From Propionibacteriales bacterium (GTDB lineage: Bacteria > Actinomycetota > Actinomycetes > Propionibacteriales > Nocardioidaceae), in contig JBBPZV010000043.1 in assembly GCA_038198775.1 (NCBI GenBank), forward strand, positions 54,405 to 118,404: a DNA stretch of 64,000 nucleotides, read 5' to 3'. The notes beneath the pieces were generated by a model. That model worked only from the letters and a program-made list of their open reading frames with translations, made no database searches and was not told the origin of the DNA. Positions 28,157-55,403 of the stretch are shown here, piece after piece. Position 1 is the first letter of the stretch. Every line of letters begins with the position of its first letter. Made by a program: the position numbers and the translations under genes.

Positions 28157-29578
28157 TCAGCGCAGCAGCGGAGCGTCGACCATCGCCCAGACCAGCCCGG
28201 ACCCGAGGCCAACGAGCAAGGCCGCCGCGGCAGCGACCAGGGCGGCCGCCTCCGCGTACGGCCGCGAGGCCCCGCTCGTCGCGCCGGCCCCGGACGGCGA
28301 GGACATGCCGAACGCCGGCCCCAGCCAGCGCAGGTAGTAGAACAGGCTGGCCACGGTGTTCACCGCCGCGACCACCGTCAGCCAGGGCAGGCCGCCGTCC
28401 CAGGCAGCCGCGAACGTCGTCAGCTTGCCGACGAACACCCCGGCCGGCGGCGTCCCCACCAGTCCCAGCAGGCTGACCAGCAGTGCCCCGGCCAGCCAGG
28501 GTCGACAGCTGCTCAGCCGCTCGTACGAAGCGAGGCTGCGCCGCTCCGGCAGCGCCGCCACGACTGCAAAGGCCGCCAGGTTCGTGGCGGCGTAGGCGGC
28601 CAGGTACAGCAGCAGCGCCGGGAGGGCGAGGTCGCTGCGGCCGGCGACCGCAACCGGCAACAACAGGTAACCGACCTGGCTGACCGTGGACCAGCCGAGC
28701 AGCCGGCGCGCGTCGGTCTGGGCGAAGGCGGCCAGGTTGCCCAGCGTCATGCTGGCCGCGGCCAGCAGCGCCATCAGCAGCGGCCAGTCGACGCTGGGAG
28801 GCAGGGCGTCCAGCAACCGGTAGGCCGCCACCAGAGCACCGATCTTGGGCACGGTGGTGAGGAAGGCGGCAACGGTGGTGCTCGCCGCCTGCGCGGCGTC
28901 GGGGACCCAGAAGTGCGCGGGCACCCCGCCGGCCTTGAACATCAGCCCCGCCACGACCGCGACGCCGCCGGTCGCCAGCGCAGCCGGCGGCTGGGCGGCC
29001 AGCTGCGTCGCCAGCTGCGAGTAGGCGGTGGCGCCCGCCAGCCCGGAGAGCACGCTCACCCCAAGCAGCATCGTGATGCCGAACAGCGCCCCGAGCAGGT
29101 AGGTCTTGAGCGCCGCCTCGGCGGCCGCCGCCGAACGCTCCAGCCCGACCAGCGCATAGAGCGGGATGCTGCCGAGCAGGTAGCCGACCGCCAGGATCAG
29201 CAGGTCGTTCGCTCCGGCCATCACCACCGCCCCCAACCCCGACAGCAGCAGCAGCGCGTACGTCTCGCTCTCCCGCGCCCGCCCGGCCAGCTCGTCGCCG
29301 CCCAGCCAGATCACCAGCAGCGTGGAGCCGATGACCAGCAGCCGGGCCGCCGTGGTCGCGGTGTCGGCCGCGTAGGTGCCGTCGAAGCCCAGCCGGTCAC
29401 CCCCGCCCGCCGGAACGGCCGCGATGCCAGCCGCCACCGCCAGGGCTGCCACCGCGATCAGGCGCGCCACGTACTGCCTACGCCGCGGCAGGAACGACCC
29501 GCTCAACAGCGCCGCCACCGCGCCGAGGAGGATCGCCGCCTCCGGCAGCAGCACCGCCGGCGCCATCGCGGTCCGCAC
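28157..29578 (-). CDS. nuoN: NuoN-like antiporter-type subunit of the complex-I-like module
   Basis: 473 aa polytopic protein. FKAGGVPAHFWVPDA ... STVSQVGYLL. Confidence 0.8.
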   Translation of the reverse strand: MRTAMAPAVLLPEAAILLGAVAALLSGSFLPRRRQYVARLIAVAALAVAAGIAAVPAGGGDRLGFDGTYAADTATTAARLLVIGSTLLVIWLGGDELAGRARESETYALLLLSGLGAVVMAGANDLLILAVGYLLGSIPLYALVGLERSAAAAEAALKTYLLGALFGITMLLGVSVLSGLAGATAYSQLATQLAAQPPAALATGGVAVVAGLMFKAGGVPAHFWVPDAAQAASTTVAAFLTTVPKIGALVAAYRLLDALPPSVDWPLLMALLAAASMTLGNLAAFAQTDARRLLGWSTVSQVGYLLLPVAVAGRSDLALPALLLYLAAYAATNLAAFAVVAALPERRSLASYERLSSCRPWLAGALLVSLLGLVGTPPAGVFVGKLTTFAAAWDGGLPWLTVVAAVNTVASLFYYLRWLGPAFGMSSPSGAGATSGASRPYAEAAALVAAAAALLVGLGSGLVWAMVDAPLLR

Positions 29579-29584
29579 GCGCGG

Positions 29585-31075
29585 CTACCGCCCCACCTGG
29601 TGCACGAGCGTGGCCGCCGCTGGCTCGATGATCCCCAGCAGTGGCCGCGGCAGCACACCGATGAACACCACCAGGGCCAGCAGCAACCCGGTCGACCAGG
29701 TCTCGGCCGGCGAGATGTCGACGAAGCCGGCGGACTGCCGGCGCAACGGCCCGGTGAACACCCGCTGCAGCGCCCGCAAGAACAGCGCCGCCGTCACCAC
29801 GATGCCCGGAAGTGCCACGGCCACCACCGGGGCGGCACCGATCCCCCCGGTGAAGATCTGGAACTCGGCGATGAAGCCGCTGAACGCCGGCAGGCCCAGC
29901 GAGGCGAACGCGGCCACGCCGAAGAAGGTGGCGTAGCGGGGCGCCACCTGCGCCAACCCTCCGTACCCGTCGATCTGGTAGCTGCGGTGCCGCTCCTGCA
30001 TCACCCCGGCGAGCAGGAACAGTGCTCCGGTGATCAGCCCGTGGCTGACCATCTGGGTGACCGCCCCCGTCACGGCGAGCTGCCGCGCCGCGGTGGTGTC
30101 CGGGGCGACGACTCCGGCCGCGCCGACCGCGAGCACGACGTATCCCATGTGGTTGACCGAGGTGTAGGCGATCATCCGCTTCAGGTCGCGTTGCGCGAGC
30201 GCCACCAGCGCGCCGTACAGCACCGAGACGATGCCGACCGCTATCAGCACCCAGGCCCAGGCACGCCAGGAGTCCGGCAGCATGGGCATCGCGATCCGGA
30301 CGAAGCCGTAGGTCCCCATCTTCAGCAGCACCCCGGCCAGCACCGCCGACCCGACCGCCGGGGCGTCGGTGTGCGCCGGCGGGAGCCAGGTGTGGAACGG
30401 GACCGTCGGTGTCTTCACGGCGAGCCCGAGCAGCAGTGCCGCAAGCACCAGCCCGCCGACCAACGGGCTGTCTCGCAGCGGCGGGTTCCGGGTCAGCGTC
30501 ACCATGTCGAACGTGTGCGGTGCCGCGGCGAGGTAGAGGCCGATGAAGCCGAGCAGCAGCGCCAGCGAGCCGAGGAAGGTGTAGAGGAAGAACTTCAGCG
30601 CCGAGCGGGCCGCGTCGCCGTGGCCCCAACCGGCGATGACGAAGTACATGCCGACGATCGACAGGTCGAAGAACACGAAGAACACCAGCAGGTCCTGCGC
30701 CGCGAACAGCCCGAGGCAGGTGGTCTGCAAGAACAAGTTCAGGGCCGCCTGCTGGCGCGGTCGCCGCTGTTCCCGCAATGCGTACACCGCACAGGCGACG
30801 AACACCACCCCGGTGAGCGCAAGCAGCGGCAGCGACAGCCCGTCCACGCCGACGTGGTAGCTGCTGCCGACGCTCGGGATCCAGCGCAGCTGCTCCTCGT
30901 ACGCCAGGCCGGGCCGGTCCGCGGTCGCGTACCGCACCCACACGTAGCCCAGCAGGCCGAGGTCCGCGGCCGTGACGGCGACCCAGGTCCAGCGGGCGGT
31001 GGCGTCCCCGATCCGCGGCACGGCCACGAGCGGCAGCGCGGCCGCCAGCGGCAGGAACACCACCAGGCTGAGCAC
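29585..31075 (-). CDS. nuoM: NuoM-like antiporter-type subunit
   Basis: 496 aa. VDGLSLPLLALT..., VKTPTVPFHTWLPPAHTDAP, AYTSVNHMGYV. Confidence 0.85.
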   Translation of the reverse strand: MLSLVVFLPLAAALPLVAVPRIGDATARWTWVAVTAADLGLLGYVWVRYATADRPGLAYEEQLRWIPSVGSSYHVGVDGLSLPLLALTGVVFVACAVYALREQRRPRQQAALNLFLQTTCLGLFAAQDLLVFFVFFDLSIVGMYFVIAGWGHGDAARSALKFFLYTFLGSLALLLGFIGLYLAAAPHTFDMVTLTRNPPLRDSPLVGGLVLAALLLGLAVKTPTVPFHTWLPPAHTDAPAVGSAVLAGVLLKMGTYGFVRIAMPMLPDSWRAWAWVLIAVGIVSVLYGALVALAQRDLKRMIAYTSVNHMGYVVLAVGAAGVVAPDTTAARQLAVTGAVTQMVSHGLITGALFLLAGVMQERHRSYQIDGYGGLAQVAPRYATFFGVAAFASLGLPAFSGFIAEFQIFTGGIGAAPVVAVALPGIVVTAALFLRALQRVFTGPLRRQSAGFVDISPAETWSTGLLLALVVFIGVLPRPLLGIIEPAAATLVHQVGR

Positions 31076-31076
31076 C

Positions 31077-32855
31077 TCAGCTCACCAGCCACAAGACGGC
31101 GACGGCGACGACCAGCACCGCCACCGCTTGGGTGTAGTACTGGTGCAGCTGTCCGGTCTGGGGGCGGCGGGCCAGCGCCGCCAGCGCTCGGGTGCCGCGC
31201 CCGAGCGCCGAGACCGCGCCGTCGACGACCCGGTCGTCGGCCAAGGCTGCGGTGTCGGCGAAGCGCAGTGTGGAGCCGGAGATGGCGACGACCCCGCCGT
31301 CGACCCAGCGGTCGTCGAACCGCGCCAACGCCGCCGCCAGGCCGAGCACCGGGTTCACGACCACGGCGTTCGCCGCTCGCTCCAGCCCCAGCCAGTGCCG
31401 GGCCCAGTCGGGCTCGGGGACGCCCCAGCGGTGGACCGCGGCCAACGTGCCCAGCGCGATGACCGCGGCGACTGCCAGCCCGACCGGGTCGGCGGTGGCC
31501 AGCGGTGGCAGTGCCAGCACTCCCAGGGTCGCCGCCCCGGTTGCGAGCACGGCGATGGGCACCGTACGCCCGGCACCGACCCGGTCCGCGCCGGCTGGCC
31601 GGGCGTCGTCACCCCACAGTACGAACAGCGCCTTGCCCGCATAGGCCGCCGAGAGCAGCGACGCCACGAGCCCGGCGGCATAGAGCGGGGCGGAGAACTC
31701 CCGGGCCGCGGAGAGCACGCCCTCCTTGGTGGCCCACAGGGACAGCGGAGGGGCGCCGGCCAACGCCAGCGCGGCGACGCCGAAGGCGACCCCGACCAGC
31801 GGCCACCGCCGGGCGGCGCCGCGCAGCGCGACCAGCCGCTTGGTCCCCAGGGCGGAAAGCCAAGCACCGGCGGCCAGGAACAGCGCGGCCTTCGTGGCCG
31901 CGTGAGCGACCAGCTGGGCGGTGCCTCCGGTGACCGCACCCACCCCGGCGGCAAGCACGACGAACCCGAGCTGCGCCGACGTGGACGCCGCCAGCAGCTG
32001 CTTGAGGTCCCGCTGCCCGACCGCGACCGCACCCAGCGCCACGGCGGTGAGCGCACCGGCCCAGGCGACCGTCACGTCCGCCCATCGCGTGCTGGCCAGC
32101 AGCGGCTGCACGCGCAACAGCAGGTAGCCGCCCATCGCGACCATGGCGGCCGAGTGCAGCAACGCGCTGACCGCGCTCGGCCCCTCCATGGCCCGCGACA
32201 GCCAGTAGCTGAACGGCAGCTGGGCCGCCTTGCCGAGTGCCGCCACCACGACACCGGCGCAGACGACGTCCCGCCACCCCGGGCTCGCCGCTGCCAGGCC
32301 GCTCAGATCCAGGCCGCTACCGCCGGCCAGCGCCGCACCCGCGGCCAGATACAGCCCGAGGTCCGCGGTCCGGGTGGTGAGGAACGCGACCGCGCCCGCG
32401 CCGACGCGCTCCTCGGACTGCCACTCGAAGCCGATCAGCGCGTACGACGTCGCTCCCATGACCTCCCAGGCGACCAGCAGGGCCGGCAGCGTGGTAGCGG
32501 TGGCGGTGAGCGTCACCGCCGCGGCGAAGATCAGCATCAAACCGTGGAAACGTGCCGGTGACCTGGCTATGTCGGCCGCGGCGAAGACCAGAACCAGTAG
32601 CGTGACCGCGGCGATCGTCGGCAGCACGGCGGCCGAGAGTGCGTCGACGCCCAGCCCGAACCCTGCCTGCGGAAGGAACGGCATCGACACCGCCGGCCGG
32701 GTCAGCGCCGCGCCGACTGCCAGGCCCAGGCCGACGGCTGCCGTCGCGAGCGACAGCGACCGCGCGACCCGGTCGGCGGCCGCGCCGCAAAGTGCCAGCC
32801 CCGCGCCCACCAGGGCGGGGAGCAGCACCAACAGCCCCAGGACCGCCGCGCTCAT
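31077..32855 (-). CDS. nuoL: NuoL-like antiporter-type subunit
   Basis: ATGA overlap with the nuoK stop. GKAAQLPFSYWLSRAMEGPSAVSALLHSAAMVAMG. The ORF-track 51-codon extension was rejected. Confidence 0.85.
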   Translation of the reverse strand: MSAAVLGLLVLLPALVGAGLALCGAAADRVARSLSLATAAVGLGLAVGAALTRPAVSMPFLPQAGFGLGVDALSAAVLPTIAAVTLLVLVFAAADIARSPARFHGLMLIFAAAVTLTATATTLPALLVAWEVMGATSYALIGFEWQSEERVGAGAVAFLTTRTADLGLYLAAGAALAGGSGLDLSGLAAASPGWRDVVCAGVVVAALGKAAQLPFSYWLSRAMEGPSAVSALLHSAAMVAMGGYLLLRVQPLLASTRWADVTVAWAGALTAVALGAVAVGQRDLKQLLAASTSAQLGFVVLAAGVGAVTGGTAQLVAHAATKAALFLAAGAWLSALGTKRLVALRGAARRWPLVGVAFGVAALALAGAPPLSLWATKEGVLSAAREFSAPLYAAGLVASLLSAAYAGKALFVLWGDDARPAGADRVGAGRTVPIAVLATGAATLGVLALPPLATADPVGLAVAAVIALGTLAAVHRWGVPEPDWARHWLGLERAANAVVVNPVLGLAAALARFDDRWVDGGVVAISGSTLRFADTAALADDRVVDGAVSALGRGTRALAALARRPQTGQLHQYYTQAVAVLVVAVAVLWLVS

Positions 32856-33154
32856 CCGGCCAGGTCCGCGGCCATGTCGGTCATGTCGGCGCCGCGGGAT
32901 CGATGCAGCAGCGTCGCCACCGCGAAGCCCATCGCCATCTCCACGGTCATCGCCGAGATCACTACCAGCAGCAGCACCTGACCGTCCGGGGACGGCGCCA
33001 GGAACCACCAGAAACCACCGGCGGCGAGGATCACGCCGTTGAGCATCAGCTCCAGACCCATCATCACCATCACGACGACCTGCTGGGACAGCGCGCCGTA
33101 GATGCCGACGGCGAACAGCGCCGCGGCCACGAGTAGGACCGTCTGCAACGTCAC
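32852..33154 (-). CDS. nuoK: NuoK-like subunit
   Basis: 100 aa with 3 TMS. GLELMLNGVIL...VVISAMTVEMAMGFA. GTGA overlap with the nuoJ stop. Confidence 0.8.
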   Translation of the reverse strand: MTLQTVLLVAAALFAVGIYGALSQQVVVMVMMGLELMLNGVILAAGGFWWFLAPSPDGQVLLLVVISAMTVEMAMGFAVATLLHRSRGADMTDMAADLAG

Positions 33155-33723
33155 CGGTTCACCCCTCCCGGCGCTGGGTCGTCCGCCGGCCGGCGACTCA
33201 GGTCGTCACCGAAGCGGTCGTAGCGGCCGCGAGCCGACGCCAGCACCACGGCCGCCACCAAGGTGGCGAACAGCACCGGGCTGACCGTGAGCATCACCAG
33301 CATCTTGGAGCCCATGATGGCGTTGCCGAGGGCTGTGGTGACGTCCACCGGGGGCGCTCCACGACGTGCCGGCCAGGGCACGAGCAGCGCCAATGCGGCG
33401 AGGCCGACGAACGTCGTGGCGGCGACGCCGGCCGCCCACCGGGGGGAGTGCACCATGTTCATCGGCATCAGGGCGGGGTTCATCCCCATGTACATGACCA
33501 TGAAGACGGCCATGATCGCCATCTCCATCACCATCATCAGGACGGTCACGATGCCGACGTACTCCAGGCCGAGCAGCAGCAACGCCAGCCCCACGGCGAC
33601 GAACGACACGGCCAGGGCGTACGTGGCCCGGGCCATCGAGTCGACCCGGAAGACCAGGGCACCGAAGCCGACAGCCGCCACCGACAGGACCCAGAACGCG
33701 ACGTCCACGAACACCGCGCTCAT
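33151..33723 (-). CDS. nuoJ: NuoJ-like subunit
   Basis: ATG at 33723 in an ATGA overlap with the nuoH stop. MSAVFVDVAFWVLSVAAVGFGALVF...YVGIVTVLMM. The first 239 codons of the ORF-track entry overlap nuoH and were rejected. Confidence 0.75.
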   Translation of the reverse strand: MSAVFVDVAFWVLSVAAVGFGALVFRVDSMARATYALAVSFVAVGLALLLLGLEYVGIVTVLMMVMEMAIMAVFMVMYMGMNPALMPMNMVHSPRWAAGVAATTFVGLAALALLVPWPARRGAPPVDVTTALGNAIMGSKMLVMLTVSPVLFATLVAAVVLASARGRYDRFGDDLSRRPADDPAPGGVNR

Positions 33724-34622
33724 CTGGCCACCGCGAGCACGGCAACCACCAGGACCTGCACCAGCACCAGCGGCAACAGCACCAGCCAGCCGACCTCCGC
33801 AAGGCGGTCCGCGCGCACCGACGGCGCGTGCCGGCGCGCTGCCACCAGGACCGCGAGCAGCGCCAGCGTCTTTGTCAGCGACCACGCCCACGCGGGCAGC
33901 AGCGGCCCGTTGCCGCCACCGAGGAACAGCGTGGCCCCGAACGCGGCACCGGCGGCGAGCAGCGCGTAACGCCCGGCCAGCACCAGCAGCCGGTCCACCC
34001 CGGAGAGCTCCTCCAGGACGCCGCCGGCCACGTCGCTCCCGGCCGGGTGCCCGAGCGGACCCCAGACGGAGAAGGCGACGACGCCGGTCAGGAACACCAG
34101 GAGGGCCACCGGCATCGAGACCACGAACCACAGCGGTTGCTGGGCGCGGACCACGTCGGCGATCCGCAGGCTGCCGGCCGCGACGGCCGGGGTGGTGATC
34201 GCGAACATCAGCGGCAGCTCGTACGACAGCGCCTGGGCGAGGAAGCGATAGCCGCCGACCAGCGAGTGCACGCTGTTCGGCCCCCAGCCGGCCAGCCAGA
34301 CCATCGCCCAGACCACGACGTCCATGGCGTTGAACCACACCACCCCCACGGAGAGGTCGGCCACCGTCCACCGCCCGAGCGGGACCACGACCACCATCAG
34401 CAGTGCGACCACCAGCAGGCCGGCCCCGCCGATGCGCCACAGCGGCCGGTCGGCGGCGACGGTGCGGCGCCGGCGCTGCCGCACCAACCGAGCCACCTCG
34501 ACCAGCGGTGAGCAGCGCGCCGCCAGCACGCCGTCCAACCCGGCGCCTGCCCCGGCGACCGCGAACAGCACCAGCGCGGCCACCACAACCCAGCCCACAC
34601 CCACCTGGCCGACCTCACCCAT
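33720..34622 (-). CDS. nuoH: NuoH-like subunit (divergent)
   Basis: GWGPNSVHSLVGGYRFLAQALSYELPLMF ... TLFLGG ... RRHAPSVRADRL resembles NuoH/ND1, but several normally acidic loop positions differ. Confidence 0.7.
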   Translation of the reverse strand: MGEVGQVGVGWVVVAALVLFAVAGAGAGLDGVLAARCSPLVEVARLVRQRRRRTVAADRPLWRIGGAGLLVVALLMVVVVPLGRWTVADLSVGVVWFNAMDVVVWAMVWLAGWGPNSVHSLVGGYRFLAQALSYELPLMFAITTPAVAAGSLRIADVVRAQQPLWFVVSMPVALLVFLTGVVAFSVWGPLGHPAGSDVAGGVLEELSGVDRLLVLAGRYALLAAGAAFGATLFLGGGNGPLLPAWAWSLTKTLALLAVLVAARRHAPSVRADRLAEVGWLVLLPLVLVQVLVVAVLAVAR

Positions 34623-35628
34623 GCGCGGACTCCCGAACCGAGACGACGGAGTCCGGCTCGTGCGCGGCCACGACCAGCCGGGCGGCGCCCAGGTCAAGAC
34701 CGGCCACCAGGTCGGGCAGTGTCTCGGTCACCGAACCGGGCGGCGCGACCCTGGGATCGGTCTCCCGCTCGCCGCGGGCAGCGGCCGCGGCTTCGGCCAA
34801 CCACCGCACCAGACGCCGGTGGACATCCCCCGGGGGCAGGTCCCGCAGCAGCCAGCGCAGCGAGACCGACCGCTCGACCCTGCGCCGCAGCCGGTCGAGG
34901 CGGGATGCGCAGTCCGACATCGGTGCACCGGTCAGCAGCTGGTCCCTGACGTGCCGCGCCGAGTCGGCGGCCGCGTCCCAACCTGCGACCGCCAGCAGCC
35001 GGTAGCTGGCGTCGCACCGCATCACCGCTCGGCGGCGGTCCCCGGCCGGTGCTCCCGTGGGGTCCTCCGGTTCCGCCGCCGGCAGCATCCGAGCCTGCGC
35101 CGCCACGACGACGTCGCCCTGGAGCCGGCAGTCGAGCCGAAGCCCCGCCGGCCAGTGCGGCAGCACCGGCCCCAGCGGGACGTGCAGCACGTCGAGGTCG
35201 ACGCCGTCACGGTCTGGCCCCTCGCCGGCCAGCTGGATACCGGCCGGGGTCATCTCGTCCTCGTCGGCCGCGTTCACCGCGTACGACGTGCGGCTGCGGG
35301 CGTCCCGGCGCTGCGACCCGGCGTCGAGCAGCTCCGCGGCCAGGGAGTCCAGCAACGCGTCCGCGTTCGCCGGCGTCGTGAGCACCCCGCGGGCACGCGG
35401 ACCCGGGAGCTGCGCCCACACCCGGTCGGCGGCGCCCCGCAGCTCCGCTCCCGGCCGCCCGCAGACGACGAGGGCGTCGGCGTCGGCCGCTGACCTCGCC
35501 AGCCGCCAGGAACGGGCGAAGACCGCTTGTTCCAGCGACATCCGCACCGTGGGCCACTCCGGGACCGCGACGACCAGCAGGTGGACGCCTCGTACCGCGA
35601 GCCGTCCGACTGCCTCGCTCAGGCCCAT
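34615..35628 (-). CDS. Hypothetical protein. By-eye resemblance to a Cys-less NuoB-like N-terminal half fused to a truncated NuoD-like segment.
   Basis: Occupies the nuoB/C/D slot between nuoA and nuoH, with overlaps on both sides. ADALVVCGRPGAELRGAADRVWAQLPGPRARGVLTTPANADA resembles the NuoB core. LGPVLPHWPAGLRLDCRLQGDVVVAA resembles the NuoD N-terminal motif. Confidence 0.4.
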   Translation of the reverse strand: MGLSEAVGRLAVRGVHLLVVAVPEWPTVRMSLEQAVFARSWRLARSAADADALVVCGRPGAELRGAADRVWAQLPGPRARGVLTTPANADALLDSLAAELLDAGSQRRDARSRTSYAVNAADEDEMTPAGIQLAGEGPDRDGVDLDVLHVPLGPVLPHWPAGLRLDCRLQGDVVVAAQARMLPAAEPEDPTGAPAGDRRRAVMRCDASYRLLAVAGWDAAADSARHVRDQLLTGAPMSDCASRLDRLRRRVERSVSLRWLLRDLPPGDVHRRLVRWLAEAAAAARGERETDPRVAPPGSVTETLPDLVAGLDLGAARLVVAAHEPDSVVSVRESAHG

Positions 35629-35969
35629 CGCAACGCGCCCTCGCGCCATGCCCACACCACCGCGAGCATCAGCAGACCGAGGAACCCGAACATCTCCACG
35701 ACGGCCTCGGCTCCCACGTCGGCGACCACGACCGCCCAGGGGTACATGAACAGCATCTCGACGTCGAAGGCCAAGAAGACCAGCGAAAGCAGATACCAAC
35801 GAGCGTGGTAGCGCGACAGGGCGTGTTCGGTGGGCTCGTTGCCGGACAGGAACGGGAGGACCTCCAGCGGCTCCCGGTGGACACCGAGCACGAGGCCGGT
35901 CGCGTAGACGCCTCCGACCGCCCCGACTCCGACGCCGAGCATCGACAACAGCCCGAGGTAGGCCTCCAT
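35619..35969 (-). CDS. nuoA: NuoA-like subunit
   Basis: 116 aa. FLSGNEPTEHALSRYHARWYLLSLVFLAFDVEMLFMYPWA. Its ATG shares one nucleotide with the copA TGA (TGATG). Confidence 0.85.
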   Translation of the reverse strand: MEAYLGLLSMLGVGVGAVGGVYATGLVLGVHREPLEVLPFLSGNEPTEHALSRYHARWYLLSLVFLAFDVEMLFMYPWAVVVADVGAEAVVEMFGFLGLLMLAVVWAWREGALRWA

Positions 35970-38215
35970 CAGCGGCTCCCCCCGACGTCGGCCGGGTCCG
36001 AGCGCAGCGACACCGGCCGGAACCGGCGCAGCCGCAGACTGTTGGAGACCACGAAGACCGACGAGAACGCCATCGCGGCGCCGGCGATCAACGGGTTCAG
36101 CAGCCCGGAGACCGCCAGCGGCAGCGCGGCCACGTTGTAGCCGAAGGCCCAGACCAGGTTTCCCTTGATCGTTCGCAACGTCCGTCGGGACAGCGCGATG
36201 GCGTCCGCCGCCGTCCGCAGGTCTCCCCGGACCAGGGTCAGGTCGCTGGCTTCGATCGCGACCTGGGTGCCGGTTCCCATCGCGATACCGAGATCGGCCT
36301 GGGCCAGAGCCGGTGCGTCGTTGATGCCATCCCCCACCATGGCGACGACACAGCCACTGCGCTGAAGGCTGCGTACGGCTTCGACCTTCGCCGCCGGCAG
36401 CACCTCCGCGATCACCTCGGCGATGCCGACCTCGCCCGCAACGCTCGCGGCGGCACGCCGGTTGTCACCGGTCAGCAGCACGGGACGCAGGCCCAGTGAC
36501 CTCAGCTCGGAGACGGCCTGCGCGCTGGTCGGCTTCACGGTGTCGGCGACCACGAGCAGACCGCGCGCGACCCCGTCCCAGCCGACGACGACTACGGTGT
36601 GGCCGGCCGACTCCGCCGCCTCCCGGTGCGGCTCCAGGTCCGCCGGGAGCGTGGCGGCACCAGCCCGCCATTGCGCCCGCCCGACGCTGACCCGATGCCC
36701 AGCGACGACTCCGTCGACCCCCAGCCCCGAGGTGGCCAGGAACTGCCCGGCGGGAGGAAGGTCGCCGAACCTGTCGTGGGCGGCGGCCGCGACGGCGGCC
36801 GCGATCGGGTGCTCGGAGGCGACCTCGACCGCGCCGGCGAGCCGCAGCACCTCCGCGGCGCTCTCGCCCGCCGCCGGAACCACGTCGACCAGCCGCATCC
36901 GGCCCTCGGTGACGGTGCCGGTCTTGTCGAGGACGATCGTGTCGACCCGCCGGGTCGACTCGAGGACCTGGGGGCCCTTGATGAGCACGCCTATCTGGGC
37001 GCCTCGTCCGGTGCCGACCAGCAGGGCGGTCGGGGTGGCCAGCCCGAGCGCGCAGGGGCAGGCGATGATCAGCACCGCCACCGCCGCACCGAACCCGACC
37101 TGCGGATCGGCACCGACGGCGAGCCAGCCCAGCAGCGTGAGCACGGCCAGAGCCATGACCACCGGCACGAAGATCGCCGAGACGCGGTCGGCGAGGCGCT
37201 GCACCGGCGCCTTCCCCGACTGCGCCTGCTCGACGAGCCGCGCCAGCTGCGCCAAGGAGGTCTCGGTCCCGACGCGGGTCGCGCGGACGACGAGCCGACC
37301 GCCGGCGTTCACCGCGGCCCCGACCACCGCGTCGCCCGGCGCGACCTCCACGGGCACGGGTTCACCGGTGAGCAGGCTGGTGTCGACCGCCGAGGAGCCC
37401 TCGACGACCTCCCCGTCCGTTGCGACCTTCTCCCCCGGTCGCACCACGAAGACGTCGCCCACAGCCAGCGCCTCGATCGGGATCCGCTGTTCGCGGCCGG
37501 ACCGGAGCACTGCGACGTCCTTCGCTCCCAGCTCGAGCAGGGCGCGCAGCGCCGCGCCGGAGCGGCGCTTGGCGCGTGCCTCGAAGTAGCGCCCGGAGAG
37601 GATGAAGACCGTGACCGCCGAGGCCACCTCCAGGTAGATGTGGTCGGAGGCACCGGTCGAGGGGACGAGGTCCAGGCGCATGCGCATCCCGGCGGCCCCG
37701 GCATCCCCGAGGAACAGCGCGTACAGCGACCAGCCGTACGCCGCCAGCACACCGAGGCTGATCAGGCTGTCCATGGTGGCGCTCAGGTGCCGGGCGTTGG
37801 CCCAGGCGGCCCGGTGGAAGGGCAGGGCGCCCCAGGTCACCACTGGGGTGGCGAGGGCCAGCGAGAGCCACTGCCAGAAGTCGAACTGCAGGAAGGGGAG
37901 CATAGCCAGCAGCACCACCGGCACCGCGAGCACGACCGAGACCAGCAGTCGGCGACGGAGCTCGCGCGCCTCACCACCCGGGTCGGGCTCCCCCGGCGCG
38001 GTGACCGGCTGGGGGAGCCTCGCGGTATAGCCGGTGGCCTCGACAGTGGCGATGGCGTCCGCGACGCTGACGCCCGCAGGCAGCGTGAGGGTGGCCTTCT
38101 CGGTGGCGTAGTTGACGCTGGCGTCGACGCCGGGCAGGCGCTTCAGCTTCTTCTCTATCCGGGCGGCGCACGAGGCGCAGGTCATGCCGCCGATCTGCAG
38201 GTCGACGGTGCTCAT
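35969..38215 (-). CDS. copA: Copper-translocating P1B-type ATPase
   Basis: [24 protein letters not shown] (HMA domain), CPC ([13 protein letters not shown]), [17 protein letters not shown] overlap with the copZ stop. The 192-codon ORF-track extension was rejected. Confidence 0.92.
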
Positions 38216-38427
38216 GCCAGCTGATAACCCGCCTCTTCGACGGCGTCGCCCACGACCTCTCGGTCCAAAGGCGCCTGGCTGCTCACGCGCACCGTGGACG
38301 CCGCGTCCACGACGAGATCCACGTGGACGGCGAGGACACCCTCGATCGCCGAAAGCTCCCCCACGACGGCGTTGACGCAGTGGCTGCAGGTCATGCCGTC
38401 GACGGCGTACGTCGTGGTGATGGACAC
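38212..38427 (-). CDS. copZ: Copper chaperone, heavy-metal-associated domain
   Basis: 71 aa, with [15 protein letters not shown] (MxCxxC). Confidence 0.88.
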
Positions 38428-38439
38428 GAAATGCTCCTC

Positions 38440-38721
38440 TCAGGACCGGACCAGGCGGGCAATGGCCTGCTGGGCCTCTCGTACCTTGACGTCGGCCTCC
38501 GCACCACCCTTGGCGGCTGCCGCCACCACGCAGTGCGCCAGGTGGGCGTCGAGCAGGCTGAGCGAGAAGGACTGCAGCGCTCGGGTGGCGGCGGAGACCT
38601 GCGTCAAGATGTCGATGCAGTAGTCGTCGGCCTCCACCATCCGCTGCAGGCCACGCACCTGTCCCTCGATGCGACGGAGCCGGGCCAGGTGTGCCTGGCG
38701 GTCTTCGCTGTAGCCCTGCAC
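38440..38721 (-). CDS. csoR: CsoR/RcnR family metal-sensing transcriptional repressor
   Basis: GTG at 38721 preceded by [22 protein letters not shown]...[11 protein letters not shown]...H..HC pattern (C-H-C ligand set). Confidence 0.85.
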
Positions 38722-38736
38722 GGCGCCTCCTACACT

Positions 38737-38756
38737 TACGGTACCCCTGTACGGTA
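38737..38756 (-). promoter_or_regulatory. CsoR-box-like operator TACCGTACAGGGGTACCGTA (minus strand)
   Basis: Lies 16 nt upstream of the csoR GTG. It contains the 13-bp perfect palindrome CTGTAC-G-GTACAG (38748..38760). It resembles the G/C-tract-centred TACC...GGTA CsoR operators recalled from B. subtilis copZA and Streptomyces. Confidence 0.55.
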
Positions 38757-38821
38757 CAGGCACACCCCCCCTGCCCAGCATCCGTTCCCATGAGCCCGCC
38801 CTACGGCAGTGTCCGCCCCCG

Positions 38822-39679
38822 TCAGGTCCGGGCTCTCACCTGGATGCGGTCCTCGACGGTGCGAACGTCGTAGCCGGGCTGCGGCGCGGTCGCGGGTCCC
38901 CTGGCGACGCTGCCGTCTCGGAGGCGGAACGTGCTGCCGTGCCACGGACAGACCACGCAACCCTCGCGGAGCTCCCCCTCGTCGAGTGGTCCTTCGTAGT
39001 GGCTGCACACGGCGTGCAGCGCGTAGAGCTCACCCTCGGTGTGCGCCAGCAGGATCGGCTCGCCGCCGACATCGGCGCGCAGCAGCTGCCCCTCCGACAG
39101 GTCTGTCGCCGCGGCGGCGTCCGTCCAGTCGAGTGGTGCCTTGTCCACACCGTAGTTGCGGTTCACCCCGACGGCCTCGCTGTAGCTCAGGTGGCCACCC
39201 AGGTAGCCGCCCAACGAGACCGTGGTGGCGCCGAGCAGCGCCAGCCGCCTCCCCCGCCGGTGGTCACCGCGGGCGCGCGCGAGCCAGCTGGCGCTGTACA
39301 GCAGCGTGCTGGCGACGTTGAACGCGGCGTGCGCCAGACCGACCCGTTTGGGCTGGCGGTCCAGACCCAGCTCCGACCAGTCCGCCAGCCCCGCAGCTGC
39401 GGTTGCCGGGACGCTGAGAATCCCCGCCCCCACGAGTCGCTGCGCCGCCTCGCGAGCTCCCGGGCCGCCCAGGTAGTCCAGCAGCGAGGCCCCCGACCAG
39501 AGCCCGATCGGCATCGTGACCAGCAGCGGGTGGACCGGATGGCCGAGCCAGCGCCCGTGAAGGGCATCCTTGACCGGTCCCCGCGGCACCACGGCCGTCA
39601 CGACCCCCGCGACCGCGTCGACTGCCGGGTCAAGGGCTTGCGCCTGCTCCAGCCTGCCGGTCAGCTTCGACCACAACAT
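38822..39679 (-). CDS. DUF2231-type membrane domain fused to a Rieske [2Fe-2S] domain
   Basis: N-terminus LHGRWLGHPVHPLLVTMPIGLW. C-terminus CSHYEGPL...CVVCPWHGSTF (CxH...CxxH). Confidence 0.75.
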   Translation of the reverse strand: MLWSKLTGRLEQAQALDPAVDAVAGVVTAVVPRGPVKDALHGRWLGHPVHPLLVTMPIGLWSGASLLDYLGGPGAREAAQRLVGAGILSVPATAAAGLADWSELGLDRQPKRVGLAHAAFNVASTLLYSASWLARARGDHRRGRRLALLGATTVSLGGYLGGHLSYSEAVGVNRNYGVDKAPLDWTDAAAATDLSEGQLLRADVGGEPILLAHTEGELYALHAVCSHYEGPLDEGELREGCVVCPWHGSTFRLRDGSVARGPATAPQPGYDVRTVEDRIQVRART

Positions 39680-39755: not shown

Positions 39756-41450
39756 TTAGTGCGGGCGGAAGGTCGCCGCGGCGGTCTGGAACACGGGCCG
39801 GCTGGCGCTCTCCCAGGTGGCGTCCGGGCCGGACATGTACAGCGCGAAGCCTCGCGGGTCGGTGACGATTCCTCGGTTGAGCACGTGGATGGTGCCACCC
39901 GGGGCCTGCCAGGTGAACTCCCAGTCGGCCGCCGGATACCGGTAGTCGACCGGTGCGATGCTGATGCGCTGGTAGCCGGGCAGCCGCGCGGCGACCGCCG
40001 GTTCCGCGTCGAGCCAGGCCTGCTCGGCACTGGGTTCGGCCTGCGGCTGCTGGTCGACCCGCAGGAACTGGGTGCCGTCCGGTGACACGTAGTCCACCCG
40101 GGTGGGTGCCGCCAGTCGGCGGGTCCATCCGTCGGGTACGGCGACGGTGAAGCCGAGCGGGTCGTGCACTCGCTGGTAGCCCGCCGGGACCCCGCGACCG
40201 GGACGGGCCTCCGGCGCTGCCGGTGAGGTGCTGGCTGGCGGAGACGGTGAGGCAGAGGCAGAGGGGTTGCTGGCCGACGGGCGGCGGGTAGGGGCCCGAC
40301 CCGGGTTGCCCTGCCCCGTCGCGCCGGTGCCGGACGTCGAACCGCTGCGCTGGGTGGCCGTCGTCGAGCCCGGGTCACCTCCGCCGAGCTGGCCGGCGAG
40401 GACGAGACCCCCTCCTAGCAGCACCACCACGGCTGCCAGCAGCAGCAGCGGTCGTCCCAGCTGGCGCTCGGGCGTCTCGGGCGCCGCCACGAAGAAGTCC
40501 TCGAGCTGCGACGGCGGCGCCACCGGCGCCATCACCGGGGCGACCGGGAGGTGGATCGTCGTGGTGTCCCCGTCGGGCGCCGGGACGACCAACGGAGGCG
40601 GCGGTGCGGTCACCGCCTGCATCAGCAACTGCCGGGCCGGGCGGCTGCGAAGTCGGCGGTCGGGCTCCTTGTCCAGCAGTCCGAGCAGCACGCTGCGCAG
40701 CGGCCCTTCGACGTGTGGAGGCGGGACCTCGTCGGCGAGGACGGCGGTGATGGTTCCCATCGTCGTCTCGGCGCGAAACGGCGGTCTCGCCTCCAGTGCC
40801 GCGTACAGCGTCGCCCCCAGCGACCACAGGTCCGCCGGTGGCCCGATGTGCTTGGCGCGCAACCGCTCCGGCGACATGTAGGTGGGCGACCCGACCAGGA
40901 GCCCGGTACTCGTCAACGTGACGTCGCTCTCGCTGGTGGCGATCCCGAAGTCGGTGAGCACCACCCGGTCCCCGTCGAGCAGCACGTTGCTGGGTTTGAC
41001 ATCACGGTGCAGCACGCCGGCTGCATGCGCGGCCTCGAGCGCGTCGATCAGGGCCACCCCGATCGCCGCCGCCCGTCCCGGCTCGACGGGGCCGTCCGCA
41101 TCGATGACCTGCGCGAGGCTGGGCGCCGCTACCAGCTCCATCACGATGCACGGCTGTCCGTCGGCCGACACCACGTCGTAGACGGTGACGATCGCGGGAT
41201 GGCTGAGGCGGGCGGTCAGACGCGCCTCCCGCATGGTGCGTTCGCAGCGGATGTCACGCTCCTCCGGTGAGATGCCGGGCGGGAACCGCACCTGCTTGAC
41301 CGCGACTGGACGGCCGAGCGTCTCGTCGCGAGCCTGCCAGACCTCACCCATTCCGCCACGCCCGAGCAGCCGCTCGAGCCGGTAGCGGCCGGCGAGCAGC
41401 CGAGCCTCCTCCGCCACCCCGTCGTCGTACCCGTTTCCCGGGGTGGTCAC
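39756..41450 (-). CDS. Ser/Thr protein kinase with one TM segment and an extracytoplasmic C-terminal domain of unknown family
   Basis: GTGA overlap with the upstream esterase stop. GRGGMGEVW..AVK..HRDVKPSNVLL..DFG..SPE. Then a Pro/Ser-rich linker, a TM segment (LLLLAAVVVLLGGGLVLA) and a ~170-aa C-terminal domain. Confidence 0.88.
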   Translation of the reverse strand: MTTPGNGYDDGVAEEARLLAGRYRLERLLGRGGMGEVWQARDETLGRPVAVKQVRFPPGISPEERDIRCERTMREARLTARLSHPAIVTVYDVVSADGQPCIVMELVAAPSLAQVIDADGPVEPGRAAAIGVALIDALEAAHAAGVLHRDVKPSNVLLDGDRVVLTDFGIATSESDVTLTSTGLLVGSPTYMSPERLRAKHIGPPADLWSLGATLYAALEARPPFRAETTMGTITAVLADEVPPPHVEGPLRSVLLGLLDKEPDRRLRSRPARQLLMQAVTAPPPPLVVPAPDGDTTTIHLPVAPVMAPVAPPSQLEDFFVAAPETPERQLGRPLLLLAAVVVLLGGGLVLAGQLGGGDPGSTTATQRSGSTSGTGATGQGNPGRAPTRRPSASNPSASASPSPPASTSPAAPEARPGRGVPAGYQRVHDPLGFTVAVPDGWTRRLAAPTRVDYVSPDGTQFLRVDQQPQAEPSAEQAWLDAEPAVAARLPGYQRISIAPVDYRYPAADWEFTWQAPGGTIHVLNRGIVTDPRGFALYMSGPDATWESASRPVFQTAAATFRPH

Positions 41451-42616
41451 TCGTAGACGAGCTTGTGCGGGCCGGGGTAGACGTACGACAGCGCATCGCG
41501 GAGCCGGTCGCGCCAGTTCTCCCAGCTGTGACCGTCGCGAGCCTCCACGAACGCGACGTCCATGCCGGCTGCGCGCAGCGTCAACACCATGGACCTGTTG
41601 GGGACGATCAGGGGCTCGTAGACGCCGCACGACACGAACACCCGGTCGGCCACCCGGCGCGGGCGGGCTCGGTAGCGGTTGACGAACCTCACCACCGGGT
41701 CGAACGCCGGCCCGCCGCCGTGGTCGGTGGGAATGTCGGTGAACACGAACGACCCCGACATCAACACCATCGACCCGTACGTCTGCGGCGACCGGTTGGC
41801 GGTGGCCAGCGACGCGACCGCGCCGAAGCTGGAACCCAGCAGGCAGCGCCCCGAGCGTTGCCCGGCCAGCGGCAGACTTGCCTCCAGGCTGGGGACCAGC
41901 TCGGTGGTCACGAAGCGCGAGTGGGCGGTGGAGTTGGCGTACTCCACGAGCCGGTCCCCCGGGTGCACGAAGGCGACGATCGTCTCCGCGACGTCGAACC
42001 GGTGGATCAGGTTGTCGAGGACGACCTTGAACGCCGCATACTGCAGGAAGTCCCCGCCGTCATGGACGATCAGCAGCGGGTACGTCGTCGTGCGCCGGAA
42101 CCGGGCCGGGAGATACAGGGTCACCGGGCAGTCGCGGCCGAGGAAGCGGCTGGCCAAGCTGATCTCGGTGAGCTCCCCGGCCCGGGCGTCCGGGTCCGGC
42201 TCGGTCCACTCGGGGGTCAGATAGCCGTGGCCGAAGCACACCGACGAGCTGCCCACAGGGCTGTGCGAACGGTGCGGGTTCAGCGGGTCGTTGACCTGCA
42301 CGACCTGCTCGCCGCGACGGATCTGGAGCTGGTACTCGATCCTGGACCCCTCAGGGAGCTCGAGCACGAGGTGCCACAGGTCGGTGCCGCGGAGCTGGCG
42401 CAGCGGCATCCGGCTCGGCAGCCCCACGATCCGATGCAGGAGGTGCACCTCGTCGGCTTCCCCCCGGAACACGAAGGTGCACCGGGTGCCTTCGATGATC
42501 GGCACCTCGTGCCCGGTGATGAAGTCGTCGACCGCGTCGGGGCCCACCGGCAGCCGCTCCTTGAGCCGGTTGATGGCCAGCCGACCGGCGGAGGGGGGAA
42601 GCGAGCGGGTCGTCAC
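41447..42616 (-). CDS. Esterase family protein (enterochelin-esterase/esterase-D-like, PF00756 type) with an N-terminal beta-sandwich-like domain
   Basis: GTGA overlap with the upstream stop. YPLLIVHDGGDFL...LLGSSFGAVASL (G-x-S-x-G). Confidence 0.65.
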   Translation of the reverse strand: MTTRSLPPSAGRLAINRLKERLPVGPDAVDDFITGHEVPIIEGTRCTFVFRGEADEVHLLHRIVGLPSRMPLRQLRGTDLWHLVLELPEGSRIEYQLQIRRGEQVVQVNDPLNPHRSHSPVGSSSVCFGHGYLTPEWTEPDPDARAGELTEISLASRFLGRDCPVTLYLPARFRRTTTYPLLIVHDGGDFLQYAAFKVVLDNLIHRFDVAETIVAFVHPGDRLVEYANSTAHSRFVTTELVPSLEASLPLAGQRSGRCLLGSSFGAVASLATANRSPQTYGSMVLMSGSFVFTDIPTDHGGGPAFDPVVRFVNRYRARPRRVADRVFVSCGVYEPLIVPNRSMVLTLRAAGMDVAFVEARDGHSWENWRDRLRDALSYVYPGPHKLVYE

Positions 42617-53903: not shown

Positions 53904-55403
53904 ATGGGGCGGCGCCAGGTGCGCGGGTCGGCCCTGCTGCTCGTCGGCCGGGGCCTCTCCATGGTCCTCGGGCTGGCGACGCAGGTGCTCATCGTCCGCT
54001 CGCTGTCGAAGGGGGACTACGGCGCGTTCGCGTACGCCCTGGCGCTGTCGAGTGCGGGCTCGACGATCCTCAGCCTGGGACAGGGAAAGCTGCTCAGCCG
54101 CTTCATGGCGATGTACGACGAGCAGAAGGACTACGCCCGGATGTTCGGGGCGATGTTCCTCGCGATCGGGACGATCCTGATCACCAGTGTCCTCGGCATC
54201 GGCGCGATGTTCCTATTCCGGGGCGCTCTGATCGGGTCGGCGGTGGACAGCTCGACGGCGATGACCATGGTGCTGATCTTGGTGTTCTTGTCACCGCTCG
54301 AGGCGCTGGACCTGGTCTTCGTCGCGCTGTTCGCGGTCTTCAGCAAGCCCCGGGCGATCTTCTTCCGCAAGTTCCTGCTCGCGCCGGGCCTGCGACTGAC
54401 CGTCGTCCTGCTCCTGATAGCCACCGGCGCCAGCGTGACCTTCCTCGCGGTTGGCTACCTGGTGGCGTCGGTGCTCGGGGTATCGCTGTACATCGGCCTG
54501 CTCATCAAGATGCTGCGGGACCGGGACCTGCTCCAGCACTTCTCGCTGCGCCGTGTCATCCTCCCGTACCGGGCGGTGTTCGCCTTCTCCTTCCCGCTGA
54601 TCACCGGCGAGCTGGCGCTGCTCTCGCTCAACGTGGGTGGCGTGCTCGTGCTCGGCGCATCCCACTCGGTGGTGGAGGTCGCGAACTACCGAGCGGTCTT
54701 CAACTCCGCCCGGCTCAACACCGCCGTCACCGGTTCCTTCGCCACTTTGTTCCTCCCGGTGATCGCCCGCTTGTACGAGCGGTCCGACATCGACGGGCTG
54801 CGCCGCACGTACTGGCACACGGCGCTGTTCGCCGCCGTGCTCACCTTCCCGATCTTCGCCCTCACCGCTCCGATGGCTCCGGAGACGACAGTCCTGCTGT
54901 TCGGTGCCCGCTACTCGGAGTCGGCGACGGTGCTGGGCCTGCTGGCGCTCGGGTACTACCTCAACGTGATCGTCGGCTTCAACGCGTACACGCTGCAGGT
55001 CTGCGGTCGCATCCGATACCTGGTCTGGGTCAACATGTCGGTCATCGCGCTCAACATCGCGCTGAGCATCCTGCTGGCCCCTCGGTTCGCCGCCGCCGGC
55101 GTCGCCGGAGCCAACTGCATTGCGCTGGTCACGCAGAACCTGCTCAACCAGTGGGCGCTTCGCTCCAGCATGCAGACCGCGCTGATCGACCGGGCGTACT
55201 GGCGCCCGTACCTGCTCATCCTCGGGCTCGCGCTGGCGCTGTGGGGGTTCCAGCTGGTGGTCCACCCCGGTCTCGTCGTGACCCTGGTTGTGGTGGCGGC
55301 GGCGTCGGCGTACCTGCTGCTCGCGACCCGGCGCAACCTGGAGCTCGCGGAGACCTTCCCCGAGCTCCGGCGCCTGCCGCTGCTGGGACGGCTCGTCGGC
55401 TAG
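53904..55403 (+). CDS. Polysaccharide/oligosaccharide flippase (MOP superfamily, Wzx-like)
   Basis: About 12-14 TMS. SALLLVGRGLSMVLGLATQVLIVRSLSKGDYGAFAYAL. The start is uncertain (in-frame candidates at 53712, 53799, 53859 and 53904). Confidence 0.75.
   Translation: MGRRQVRGSALLLVGRGLSMVLGLATQVLIVRSLSKGDYGAFAYALALSSAGSTILSLGQGKLLSRFMAMYDEQKDYARMFGAMFLAIGTILITSVLGIGAMFLFRGALIGSAVDSSTAMTMVLILVFLSPLEALDLVFVALFAVFSKPRAIFFRKFLLAPGLRLTVVLLLIATGASVTFLAVGYLVASVLGVSLYIGLLIKMLRDRDLLQHFSLRRVILPYRAVFAFSFPLITGELALLSLNVGGVLVLGASHSVVEVANYRAVFNSARLNTAVTGSFATLFLPVIARLYERSDIDGLRRTYWHTALFAAVLTFPIFALTAPMAPETTVLLFGARYSESATVLGLLALGYYLNVIVGFNAYTLQVCGRIRYLVWVNMSVIALNIALSILLAPRFAAAGVAGANCIALVTQNLLNQWALRSSMQTALIDRAYWRPYLLILGLALALWGFQLVVHPGLVVTLVVVAAASAYLLLATRRNLELAETFPELRRLPLLGRLVG

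Follow-up and report, generated by a model that had tools for sequence, protein, structure and literature searches.

A probable cofactor-free NuoB-NuoD relic in an actinobacterial complex I-derived cassette with predicted copper control

Operons that resemble the membrane arm of respiratory complex I and lack most of its redox subunits have been noticed since 2012, when the cassette considered here entered the literature as a 'partial NDH-1 operon'. Under the names 'NDH-1 partial 2 operon' and nuoAHJKLMN it has been listed among 'marine adaptation genes' (Penn & Jensen 2012; Ian 2014; Sun 2018; Almeida 2019) and interpreted as a Na+ or H+ pump for life in the sea (PMC3314556, PMC4018334, PMC6002675, PMC6676996); one paper records an intervening 'hypothetical protein'. 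In Streptomyces lividans 66, one report describes eight genes, SLI1027-1034, within a metal-resistance island and also on plasmid pPSED01 (PMC3698927), and these are probably the same cassette. Complete fusions of NuoB, NuoC and NuoD are known as well, and they keep their cofactors (PMC4758237). In this work we examine a 64,000-nucleotide (nt) window, that is, the whole stretch of DNA analysed (positions 54,405 to 118,404 of contig JBBPZV010000043.1, assembly GCA_038198775.1), from a Propionibacteriales bacterium of the family Nocardioidaceae, and in particular a 337-residue open reading frame (ORF), here called X, which lies between nuoA and nuoH in one such cassette. Full-text literature searches returned no paper that identifies X as a NuoB-NuoD relic, and none on the loss of iron-sulphur (Fe-S) cluster N2, on Met-rich motifs in NuoJ, NuoK and NuoA, or on CsoR boxes of the cassette. 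We present evidence that X is very likely such a relic, and we ask what a complex I membrane arm capped by it might do.

X occupies positions 34615-35628 on the minus strand of the window (G+C content about 72%), where the gene order is nuoA-X-nuoH-J-K-L-M-N. Its ATG at 35628 overlaps the end of nuoA by 10 nt (cgATGGGCCTGA), its stop codon overlaps the ATG of nuoH by 8 nt (ATGGGTGA), and the junctions downstream of nuoH all either overlap or are separated by at most 6 nt. The listed ORF reaches further upstream, to a TTG at 35799 that would give a protein of 394 residues; homologues begin at the Met of MGL..., and we therefore take the N-terminus to be MGLSEAV. A search of a 90%-clustered database returned 363 homologues at E <= 1e-3, the nearest with 54% identity (E = 5e-80), every one of them labelled 'hypothetical' and devoid of a Pfam domain. 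Extending the search with a hidden Markov model to 1.84 billion representatives yielded 1216 sequences at 50% clustering, and for 599 of these the E-value was 1e-30 or lower. The protein is encoded in at least 445 species-level genomes, and all 80 of the 80 retrieved loci belong to Actinomycetota, with hosts that include Kineococcus, Cryobacterium, Modestobacter, Micromonospora, Salinispora, Kocuria, Rhodococcus, Mycobacterium and Nocardioides. NuoA, H, J, K, L, M and N were detected by tblastn within 10 kb on either side of X in 87 of 87 loci, and the family alignment of X contains 26 invariant positions. With hundreds of homologues and 1216 clusters, X is to be regarded on comparative grounds as a real gene product and not a chance ORF of GC-rich DNA. 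A pseudogene or decaying remnant was likewise ruled out by the intact ORFs, the translationally coupled junctions, the invariant columns and the breadth of the family.

The origin of the N-terminal half of X was traced with a profile of 46 family members, which was searched against all PDB sequences. NuoB-family chains (Nqo6, NDUFS7/PSST, NUKM, NdhK and MbhJ) make up 38 of the 41 matches, led by Nqo6 of Thermus thermophilus (E = 5.3e-5), whose segment aligned with X residues 45-78 ends in ...VWEQMPDPK. The NuoB core SPRQAD-x-V-x-G...QMP-P is detectable in the profile, nearly all matches down to E = 2 are NuoB homologues, and an hhalign comparison with Escherichia coli NuoB recovered the same register (E = 5.6e-4). 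An AlphaFold2 model of the whole protein, with a mean predicted local distance difference test score (pLDDT) of 87 and a predicted TM-score of 0.85, starts with an N-domain of three alpha/beta units and passes through a disordered linker into a three-stranded sheet and then a helical bundle; in this model the N-domain resembles a truncated flavodoxin-like fold, with three beta-alpha units only. When the model was compared with the PDB by Foldseek, the top matches were almost all members of the NuoD family (HycE, MbsL, NDUFS2, NdhH and NuoCD) or of the NuoB family (HycG, NDUFS7, NdhK and MbhJ). The latter gave target-normalised TM-scores of 0.42-0.53 and, for most chains, root-mean-square deviations of 2.4-3.8 A and probabilities of 0.93-0.99, at weak E-values of 0.1-0.4.

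The C-terminal half is more diverged, and searches with X against Pfam (PF00346 included) and PDB sequences gave no match to NuoD. Modelled separately, residues 126-337 (pLDDT 85) retrieved NuoD-family structures (NuoD, NDUFS2, NdhH, HycE, MbsL and MbhL) as 48 of the top 50 Foldseek matches, with query-normalised TM-scores of up to 0.56, probabilities of up to 0.99 and E-values that were all 0.025 or greater; about half of the fold is present. For profile comparison, nine NuoD-family sequences were collected from E. coli and plasmid entries in public databases (Mycobacterium, Sinorhizobium, E. coli, Neisseria, a haloarchaeon, Bacteroides, Allomeiothermus and two group-4 hydrogenase large subunits). 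Local hhalign paired X residues 146-181 (DVLHVPLGPVLPHWPAGLRLDCRLQGDVVVAAQARM) with NuoD positions 6-41 over 36 columns (P = 0.0018, probability only 15%), and a second, collinear match joined X residues 299-325 to the NuoD C-terminus over 27 columns (E = 0.086, probability 0.7%), the '..ARLVVA..D' of X being paired with '..AAVASIDP' of NuoD. Global-mode hhalign of X against the NuoD profile produced a meaningless 15-column end match, and alignment of the C-terminal profile with E. coli NuoCD alone produced one 19-column match in the wrong place. Searched against PDB sequences, the same profile drew nothing but weak matches to XPA (E = 0.12-0.22), which we judged to be chance. In the model, the NuoD-like half begins with a three-stranded sheet carrying an invariant GPV..WP.G...GD motif and continues into a helical bundle. 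Given the collinear N- and C-terminal matches and this model, X probably retains both ends of NuoD and its helical core, approximately 200 of approximately 400 residues. Because the PDB profile, the two Foldseek lists and the hhalign ends lead to one and the same pair of subunits, in the expected order and gene slot, X is very likely a degenerate protein in which NuoB (residues 1-120) and NuoD (residues 141-337) have been fused into one chain, with the loss of about half of each parent.

The original prediction, which compared the ORF with consensus strings for NuoB and NuoD, had proposed a 337-residue ORF between nuoA and nuoH that overlaps both genes, and the coordinates and both overlaps agree with it. 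The two motifs that it quoted are indeed present in X, where SAADADALVVCGRPGAELRGAADRVWAQLPGPRAR spans residues 46-80 and LGPVLPHWPAGLRLDCRLQGDVVVAA spans residues 152-177, and the consensus strings match real NuoB and NuoD sequences. Its NuoB-like core was recovered in the same region by both the PDB profile and hhalign, while the register that it proposed for the NuoD N-terminal motif was reproduced by profile alignment. Its further statement that the rest of NuoD is largely missing has to be revised, since the C-terminal motif and the helical core appear to survive.

Using the NuoB register given by the PDB profile and hhalign, we located the columns of X that correspond to the ligands of cluster N2 and examined them in 120 homologues. 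The tandem Cys-Cys is replaced by V20 and A21 in the window, position 21 being Glu in 113 of the 120; the third Cys corresponds to the variable position 86, which is P, A, E, T or G (P86 in the window); and the fourth, in the GCPP motif, would lie beyond the truncated domain, at a position occupied by a helix, and has no counterpart. None of the 120 homologues has a Cys at an N2-equivalent column (CC..E, G.C..GG, GCPP), so that sequencing error was ruled out as the source of a loss that is family-wide. Residues 18-25 of the window copy (35554-35577) contain VAVPEW where the family has VEVPGW. The quinone site has fared similarly, in that the His equivalent to T. thermophilus Nqo4 His38 aligns, in the hhalign register, with the invariant Pro160 of X, and the 'IGYLH' loop that carries Nqo4 Tyr87 has no counterpart, a variable loop standing in its place. 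E. coli NuoB, NuoCD, NuoI, NuoE, NuoF and NuoG, used as tblastn queries, found no homologue within 10 kb on either side of X in the 87 loci. Since X has no cluster ligands, and NuoC, NuoI and NuoEFG are absent, the module cannot accept electrons by any visible route, and we consider it likely that the eight-protein module is not redox-driven. Three Cys residues outside the N2 columns are conserved in the family, namely C56 (93%; near 35461 in the window), C167 (89%; near 35128) and C205 (78%; near 35014). Of the 120 homologues, 81 have all three, and those that lack C167 tend to lack C205 as well; the three may form a candidate metal site where the B-like and D-like parts meet.

These results uphold what had been proposed for the N2 cysteines, namely that they are replaced; the alignment of orthologues that was suggested as a check shows the loss to be conserved, with no N2 Cys in any of the 120 homologues examined. 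The accompanying suggestion that the membrane arm is not driven by electron transfer of the NADH or ferredoxin type is in keeping with the lack of a visible route of electron uptake. One detail, the reading of TPAN as a substitute for SCAN, proved to be a coincidence of the window sequence, as those columns vary across the family, and the description of X as a decayed structural cap is too weak: the 26 invariant positions and the three conserved Cys elsewhere in the protein suggest an active role.

The membrane arm itself is complete, each of its seven subunits (NuoA, H, J, K, L, M and N) matching its own Pfam family, and NuoL, NuoM and NuoN score best against NDH-1 L, M and N models rather than Mrp models, with NuoH, NuoA and NuoJ also present. 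To follow individual residues, 70-76 cassette copies per subunit were aligned with their E. coli counterparts (E. coli numbering is used throughout). In NuoL, E144, D178, K229, H254, H338, K342 and K399 are kept in 70 of 70 copies and D400 in 68 of 70 (Glu in the window); in NuoM, K265, H322, H348 and E407 are kept in all 70 and K234 in 69, with E144 changed to Asp in every copy. Both NuoK carboxylates, E36 and E72, are retained in 76 of 76 sequences and the NuoA carboxylates D79 and E81 in 74 of 74. NuoN keeps K158, K247 and K395; its Glu in transmembrane helix 5 (TM5; E133) is Leu in 68 of 71 copies, and position 217 is Lys in 50 and Glu in 21 of the 71. In NuoN, the antiporter-like subunit nearest to the E-channel, the Glu-Lys pair is thereby lost, and NuoL is canonical.

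The most conspicuous changes surround the E-channel, the segment built from NuoA, NuoJ and NuoK. In NuoJ, TM3 and the loop that follows it (residues 62-92, window positions 33448-33540) read LMMVMEMAIMAVFMVMYMGMNPALMPMNMVH. The canonical TM3 motif 'Y-[AV]-G-A', found in the E. coli, cyanobacterial, Paracoccus and canonical mycobacterial proteins, is replaced throughout the cassette by the consensus LMMVMEMA[IV]MA[IV][YF]M[VI]M[FY]MGMNPALMPM[SN]MVH, in which at least 13 Met columns are kept in at least 90% of 74 sequences, E. coli Y59 and G61 have both become Met, and a new intramembrane Glu appears. NuoK carries VMVMMGLELM (33044-33073) and AMTVEMAMG (32927-32953) around its two Glu residues, and NuoA carries FDVEMLFMYPW (35736-35768), with Met beside Glu, so that conserved Met clusters flank every E-channel carboxylate in NuoJ, NuoK and NuoA. 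On average, Met makes up 9.2% of NuoJ and 9.8% of NuoK; in these cassettes NuoL, M, N and H contain 1.3-2.2% Met, and a canonical mycobacterial NuoJ contains 2.2%. To judge from these alignments, the distal proton machinery is intact, and the connection between the former quinone site and the pumps has been remade with Met and Glu.

In the window, the cassette is preceded on the same strand by copper genes (Table 1). The copZ stop codon overlaps the copA ATG, the copA stop codon overlaps the nuoA ATG (TGATG), and a box of the CsoR/RicR operator type ends 21 nt upstream of the csoR GTG; a longer csoR ORF is possible from an ATG at 38781. The pattern TACCC-N6-GGGTA found no box, and boxes were located with a looser pattern and by reading the sequence. 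Operators of the CsoR/RicR regulon have the general form TACCC-N4-6-GGGTA, and the box is of the same type as the Mycobacterium tuberculosis RicR box TACCCCGCTGGGTA (PMC3944814). Because of the overlaps that run from copZ to nuoA and the CsoR-type box upstream of csoR, we assign the cassette to the distal part of a predicted copper-responsive 11-gene operon, csoR-copZ-copA-nuoA-X-H-J-K-L-M-N. Next to the operon on its upstream side lies, on the minus strand, a gene for a membrane protein with a DUF2231 domain and a C-terminal Rieske [2Fe-2S] domain (38822-39679), and still further upstream a Ser/Thr protein kinase gene (39756-41630).

Table 1. Features of the predicted copper operon and of X in the window.
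Feature	Position	Strand	Evidence
CsoR/RicR-type operator-like box TACCGTACAGGGGTA, inside palindrome CCTGTACCGTACAGG	38742..38756	minus	pattern match
csoR, copper-sensing repressor, GTG start after GGAGG	38440..38721	minus	PF02583, E = 1.6e-27
copZ, HMA-domain copper chaperone, MTCSHC motif	38212..38427	minus	PF00403, E = 2.4e-11
copA, P1B-type Cu+ ATPase, HMA domain, CPC motif	35969..38215	minus	PF00122, PF00702, PF00403
nuoA	35619..35969	minus	PF00507, E = 5e-25
X residues 1-120, NuoB-like half	35269..35628	minus	profile, model, Foldseek
X residues 121-140, short low-confidence linker	35209..35268	minus	AlphaFold2 model
X residues 141-337 and stop codon, NuoD-like half	34615..35208	minus	model, Foldseek, hhalign
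nuoH, 300 residues, ATG at 34622	33720..34622	minus	PF00146, E = 5e-44
nuoJ	33151..33723	minus	
nuoK	32852..33154	minus	
nuoL, 592 residues	31077..32855	minus	
nuoM	29585..31075	minus	TIGR01972, 479 bits, above cutoff
nuoN	28157..29578	minus	

An association with copper genes recurs across the related loci (identified below by L numbers). Genes for CopA, CsoR, the copper storage protein Csp, DUF305 or CueP lie within 10 kb in 26 of 87 loci, and in several of them a copper gene stands directly upstream of nuoA on the same strand: csoR-copA in L036, L048 and L057, Csp in the Kineococcus loci and in L009 and L072, and DUF305 in Nocardioides and Micromonospora. A TACCCC-N-GGGGTA box was found at most 400 nt upstream of nuoA in 13 of 81 distinct loci, compared with 0.58 expected from the rate in other parts of the same DNA. 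The box-bearing loci are mostly other than those with copper genes, and about 40% of related loci have copper genes or CsoR/RicR boxes near nuoA. X is also found on 16 actinobacterial plasmids. On plasmid 1 of Arthrobacter sp. FB24 (L088), genes for a sulfocyanin-like copper protein, a DUF305 protein and a multicopper oxidase directly precede nuoA, and on Mycobacterium avium pMAH135 (L089) a MerR regulator, a heavy-metal ATPase and an HMA protein are encoded just upstream. The plasmids that carry the whole cassette are conjugative or mobilizable, and on them it lies within metal-resistance regions, a cadmium transporter being also among the neighbours. A transposase flanks the cassette in Klenkia (L002/L003), and Arthrobacter echini P9 has two copies on different contigs (L042 and L064), each with a CsoR-type box upstream of its nuoA.

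X itself offers a further potential connection with copper. In most homologues the linker between the two halves holds an insert of 10-130 residues composed of 26% Asp, 19% Gly, 11% His and 10.5% Met, with repeats of the MDHGD type in 75 of 115 homologues; inserts such as HGDMDHGDMD.. and MDMPMP are seen in homologues P0003-P0120 at alignment columns of approximately 130-345. The repeats are similar to the MDH/MXXM repeats with which Pseudomonas CopA/CopB bind copper. The NCBI label of the M. avium plasmid protein, 'DUF4779 domain-containing protein', is probably due to this low-complexity insert. Taken with the genomic context, a copper-related role for the cassette seems rather probable.

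The interpretation that in our view best accommodates these observations, with a probability of roughly 0.5, is that the cassette is a redox-dead, complex I-derived machine driven by the proton motive force, and probably a Cu(I) exporter. In the absence of redox input, the proton motive force would be its only energy source, and thioether-rich sites beside carboxylates, together with predicted CsoR control and copper neighbours, make export of Cu(I) or Ag(I) the most likely activity. X would dock on NuoH and NuoA, as the quinone module does in complex I. Protons would enter through the Lys/Glu/His chains of NuoL and NuoM, presumably with complex I running in reverse, and a conformational and electrostatic wave would drive work at the rebuilt E-channel, where a path lined by Met and Glu, formed by NuoA, NuoJ, NuoK and the altered NuoN, would carry a soft cation outwards. 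The Fe-S-free relic and its Asp/His/Met-rich loop may serve as cytoplasmic cap and copper acceptor. If the standard topology applies, the cytoplasmic side would present the NuoJ TM3-TM4 loop MGMNPALMPM.MVH, the NuoK tail DMTDMA and also the insert of X, and the three elements could together form an acceptor funnel, perhaps fed by CopZ. Direct Cu(I)/H+ antiport is the more tentative part of this proposal, at somewhat less than an even chance, and we are similarly hesitant about the wider suggestion that the cassette represents a new class of proton-motive-force-driven Cu(I)/Ag(I) exporter derived from a whole complex I membrane arm.

Several observations weigh against this interpretation. More than half of the related loci have neither a copper gene nor a CsoR box by the probes used. 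The window copy of X is nearly devoid of the His/Met/Asp insert. It also departs from the family where there is otherwise hardly any variation, with E21 changed to A and G24 to E; it is the only one of the 120 homologues with Ala at the first of these positions and the only one with Glu at the second (Gly in 116). As regards descent, Pfam and NCBIfam scans of X assigned no family at E <= 1, including PF01058 (Oxidored_q6), and Foldseek against the PDB gave no match that reaches E = 1e-3. Cytoplasmic Cu(I) sites are usually built from Cys, and Met-rich sites occur more typically in the periplasm. Within the visible part of the copper-induced list for S. lividans 66, the neighbouring SLI1026 and SLI1041 appear and the probably equivalent SLI1027-1034 do not (PMC3698927), and comparative genomics ties the cassette to marine or salt habitats (PMC3314556, PMC6676996).

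The last point bears on the principal competing explanation, that the cassette is an Mrp-like antiporter that exchanges Na+ (or K+) for H+ under salt or alkaline stress, in which X is only an inert plug of the former quinone cavity. That Penn & Jensen (2012) and later authors found nuoAHJKLMN enriched in marine isolates of Salinispora, Streptomyces and Kocuria, that the antiporter-like subunits are intact and that Mrp and MBH scaffolds can move Na+ all speak for such an activity; the marine link, however, is a correlation with habitat, and hosts such as Cryobacterium, Modestobacter and M. avium come also from soil, glacier and clinical sources. Moreover, Met is a poor ligand for Na+ or K+, yet Met clusters are the most conserved novelty of the cassette, which is flanked by CsoR boxes and copper genes rather than salt genes. 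We accordingly regard an antiporter of this kind as unlikely, though less so than the use of the cassette as a substitute membrane arm of ordinary complex I, for instance during copper stress, which would recruit NuoB, C, D, I, E, F and G encoded by the canonical operon and have X as an assembly factor or temporary placeholder. A full nuo operon is usual in genomes that have the cassette (PMC3314556), and cyanobacteria do exchange NdhD/F paralogues. Against an exchange of arms stand the NuoB and NuoD surfaces of X, which would compete for the same docking site, the position of X in the B/C/D slot, translationally coupled, in 87 of 87 loci, the NuoJ TM3 devoid of the Tyr and Gly conserved in the redox-coupled enzymes compared, and the plasmids on which the cassette travels alone; such a role is improbable.

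The two remaining explanations fare worse. That X derives from neither NuoB nor NuoD, and is an unrelated accessory protein whose motif and fold matches arose by chance or convergence, would suit the want of a Pfam or NCBIfam family, Foldseek E-values of 0.025-0.8 and hhalign probabilities as low as 15-30%; four independent lines nevertheless lead to the same two subunits in the right order and the right gene slot, and we hold chance or convergence to be very improbable. Lower still, and close to refuted, is the proposal made for S. lividans SLI1027-1034, on the model of E. coli NDH-2, that an extra NADH-ubiquinone reductase system acts as a Cu(II) reductase (PMC3698927). Its copper context is real, but NDH-2 is unrelated to complex I, and the cassette encodes no NADH, flavin, Fe-S or quinone site.

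Were the exporter interpretation to hold, its implications would reach beyond copper resistance. The central open question about complex I is how the antiporter-like subunits are made to respond to what happens at the quinone site. In the cassette the redox chemistry has been removed, NuoH and NuoA have been kept together with the NuoB and NuoD loops and the full proton chain, and the E-channel alone has been rewritten; if active, the module would be a minimal, cofactor-free coupling machine and, if the proposed direction is right, a natural case of complex I coupling run backwards on a non-redox substrate. It would also constitute a new copper-resistance determinant, carried by at least 445 species of actinobacteria and by mobile plasmids such as M. 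avium pMAH135, and, should transport be confirmed, a new class of metal transporter. Two published readings, the 'marine adaptation proton pump' and the 'Cu(II) reductase', would be corrected, and a family of more than 1200 clusters that today is without annotation would gain a name.

Comparison with described systems places these features in perspective. The closest functional parallels are CusA, a proton-motive-force-driven transporter of the RND type, and the entry platform of CopA, in both of which Met clusters and carboxylates handle Cu(I); neither is homologous to the cassette, and the likeness is one of functional analogy only. Among relatives by descent, the Mrp antiporters and the MBH and MBS complexes likewise use the complex I scaffold without NADH and pass a non-proton ion near subunits that resemble NuoK, NuoJ and NuoN. 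MbhJ, MbhL and MbsL are among the structural matches of X; MBH and MBS, however, retain their Fe-S clusters and catalytic site, and Mrp has no homologues of NuoH, NuoA, NuoB or NuoD. The marine cassette is the same system, the Salinispora and Kocuria loci being among our matches (L083 and L081), although the papers that describe it leave the hypothetical protein unnamed, propose a proton or sodium pump for seawater, and mention neither a copper context nor Met motifs. SLI1027-1034 differ from the present account in having been read as a Cu(II) reductase and in being absent from the visible portion of the copper-induced Table 3 of that report. Complex I itself (NDH-1), including the 11-subunit form that lacks NuoEFG, shares with the cassette homologous NuoA, H, J, K, L, M and N in canonical order, the Lys/Glu/His chain of NuoL and NuoM and the carboxylates of NuoA and NuoK, and its quinone module very likely supplied the NuoB and NuoD from which X derives. 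The cassette differs in having no NuoC, NuoI, NuoE, NuoF or NuoG, in the fusion and halving of NuoB and NuoD, in the loss of N2, of the quinone-site His and Tyr and of the NuoN TM5 Glu, in the Met and Glu of NuoJ TM3, and in the copper genes that adjoin it. It thus lies outside the enzyme-level definition of complex I, which comprises at least 11 core subunits, NuoC and NuoI among them, and an Fe-S chain that leads to a quinone site, and by kind it is a member of the complex I/Mrp/MBH superfamily.

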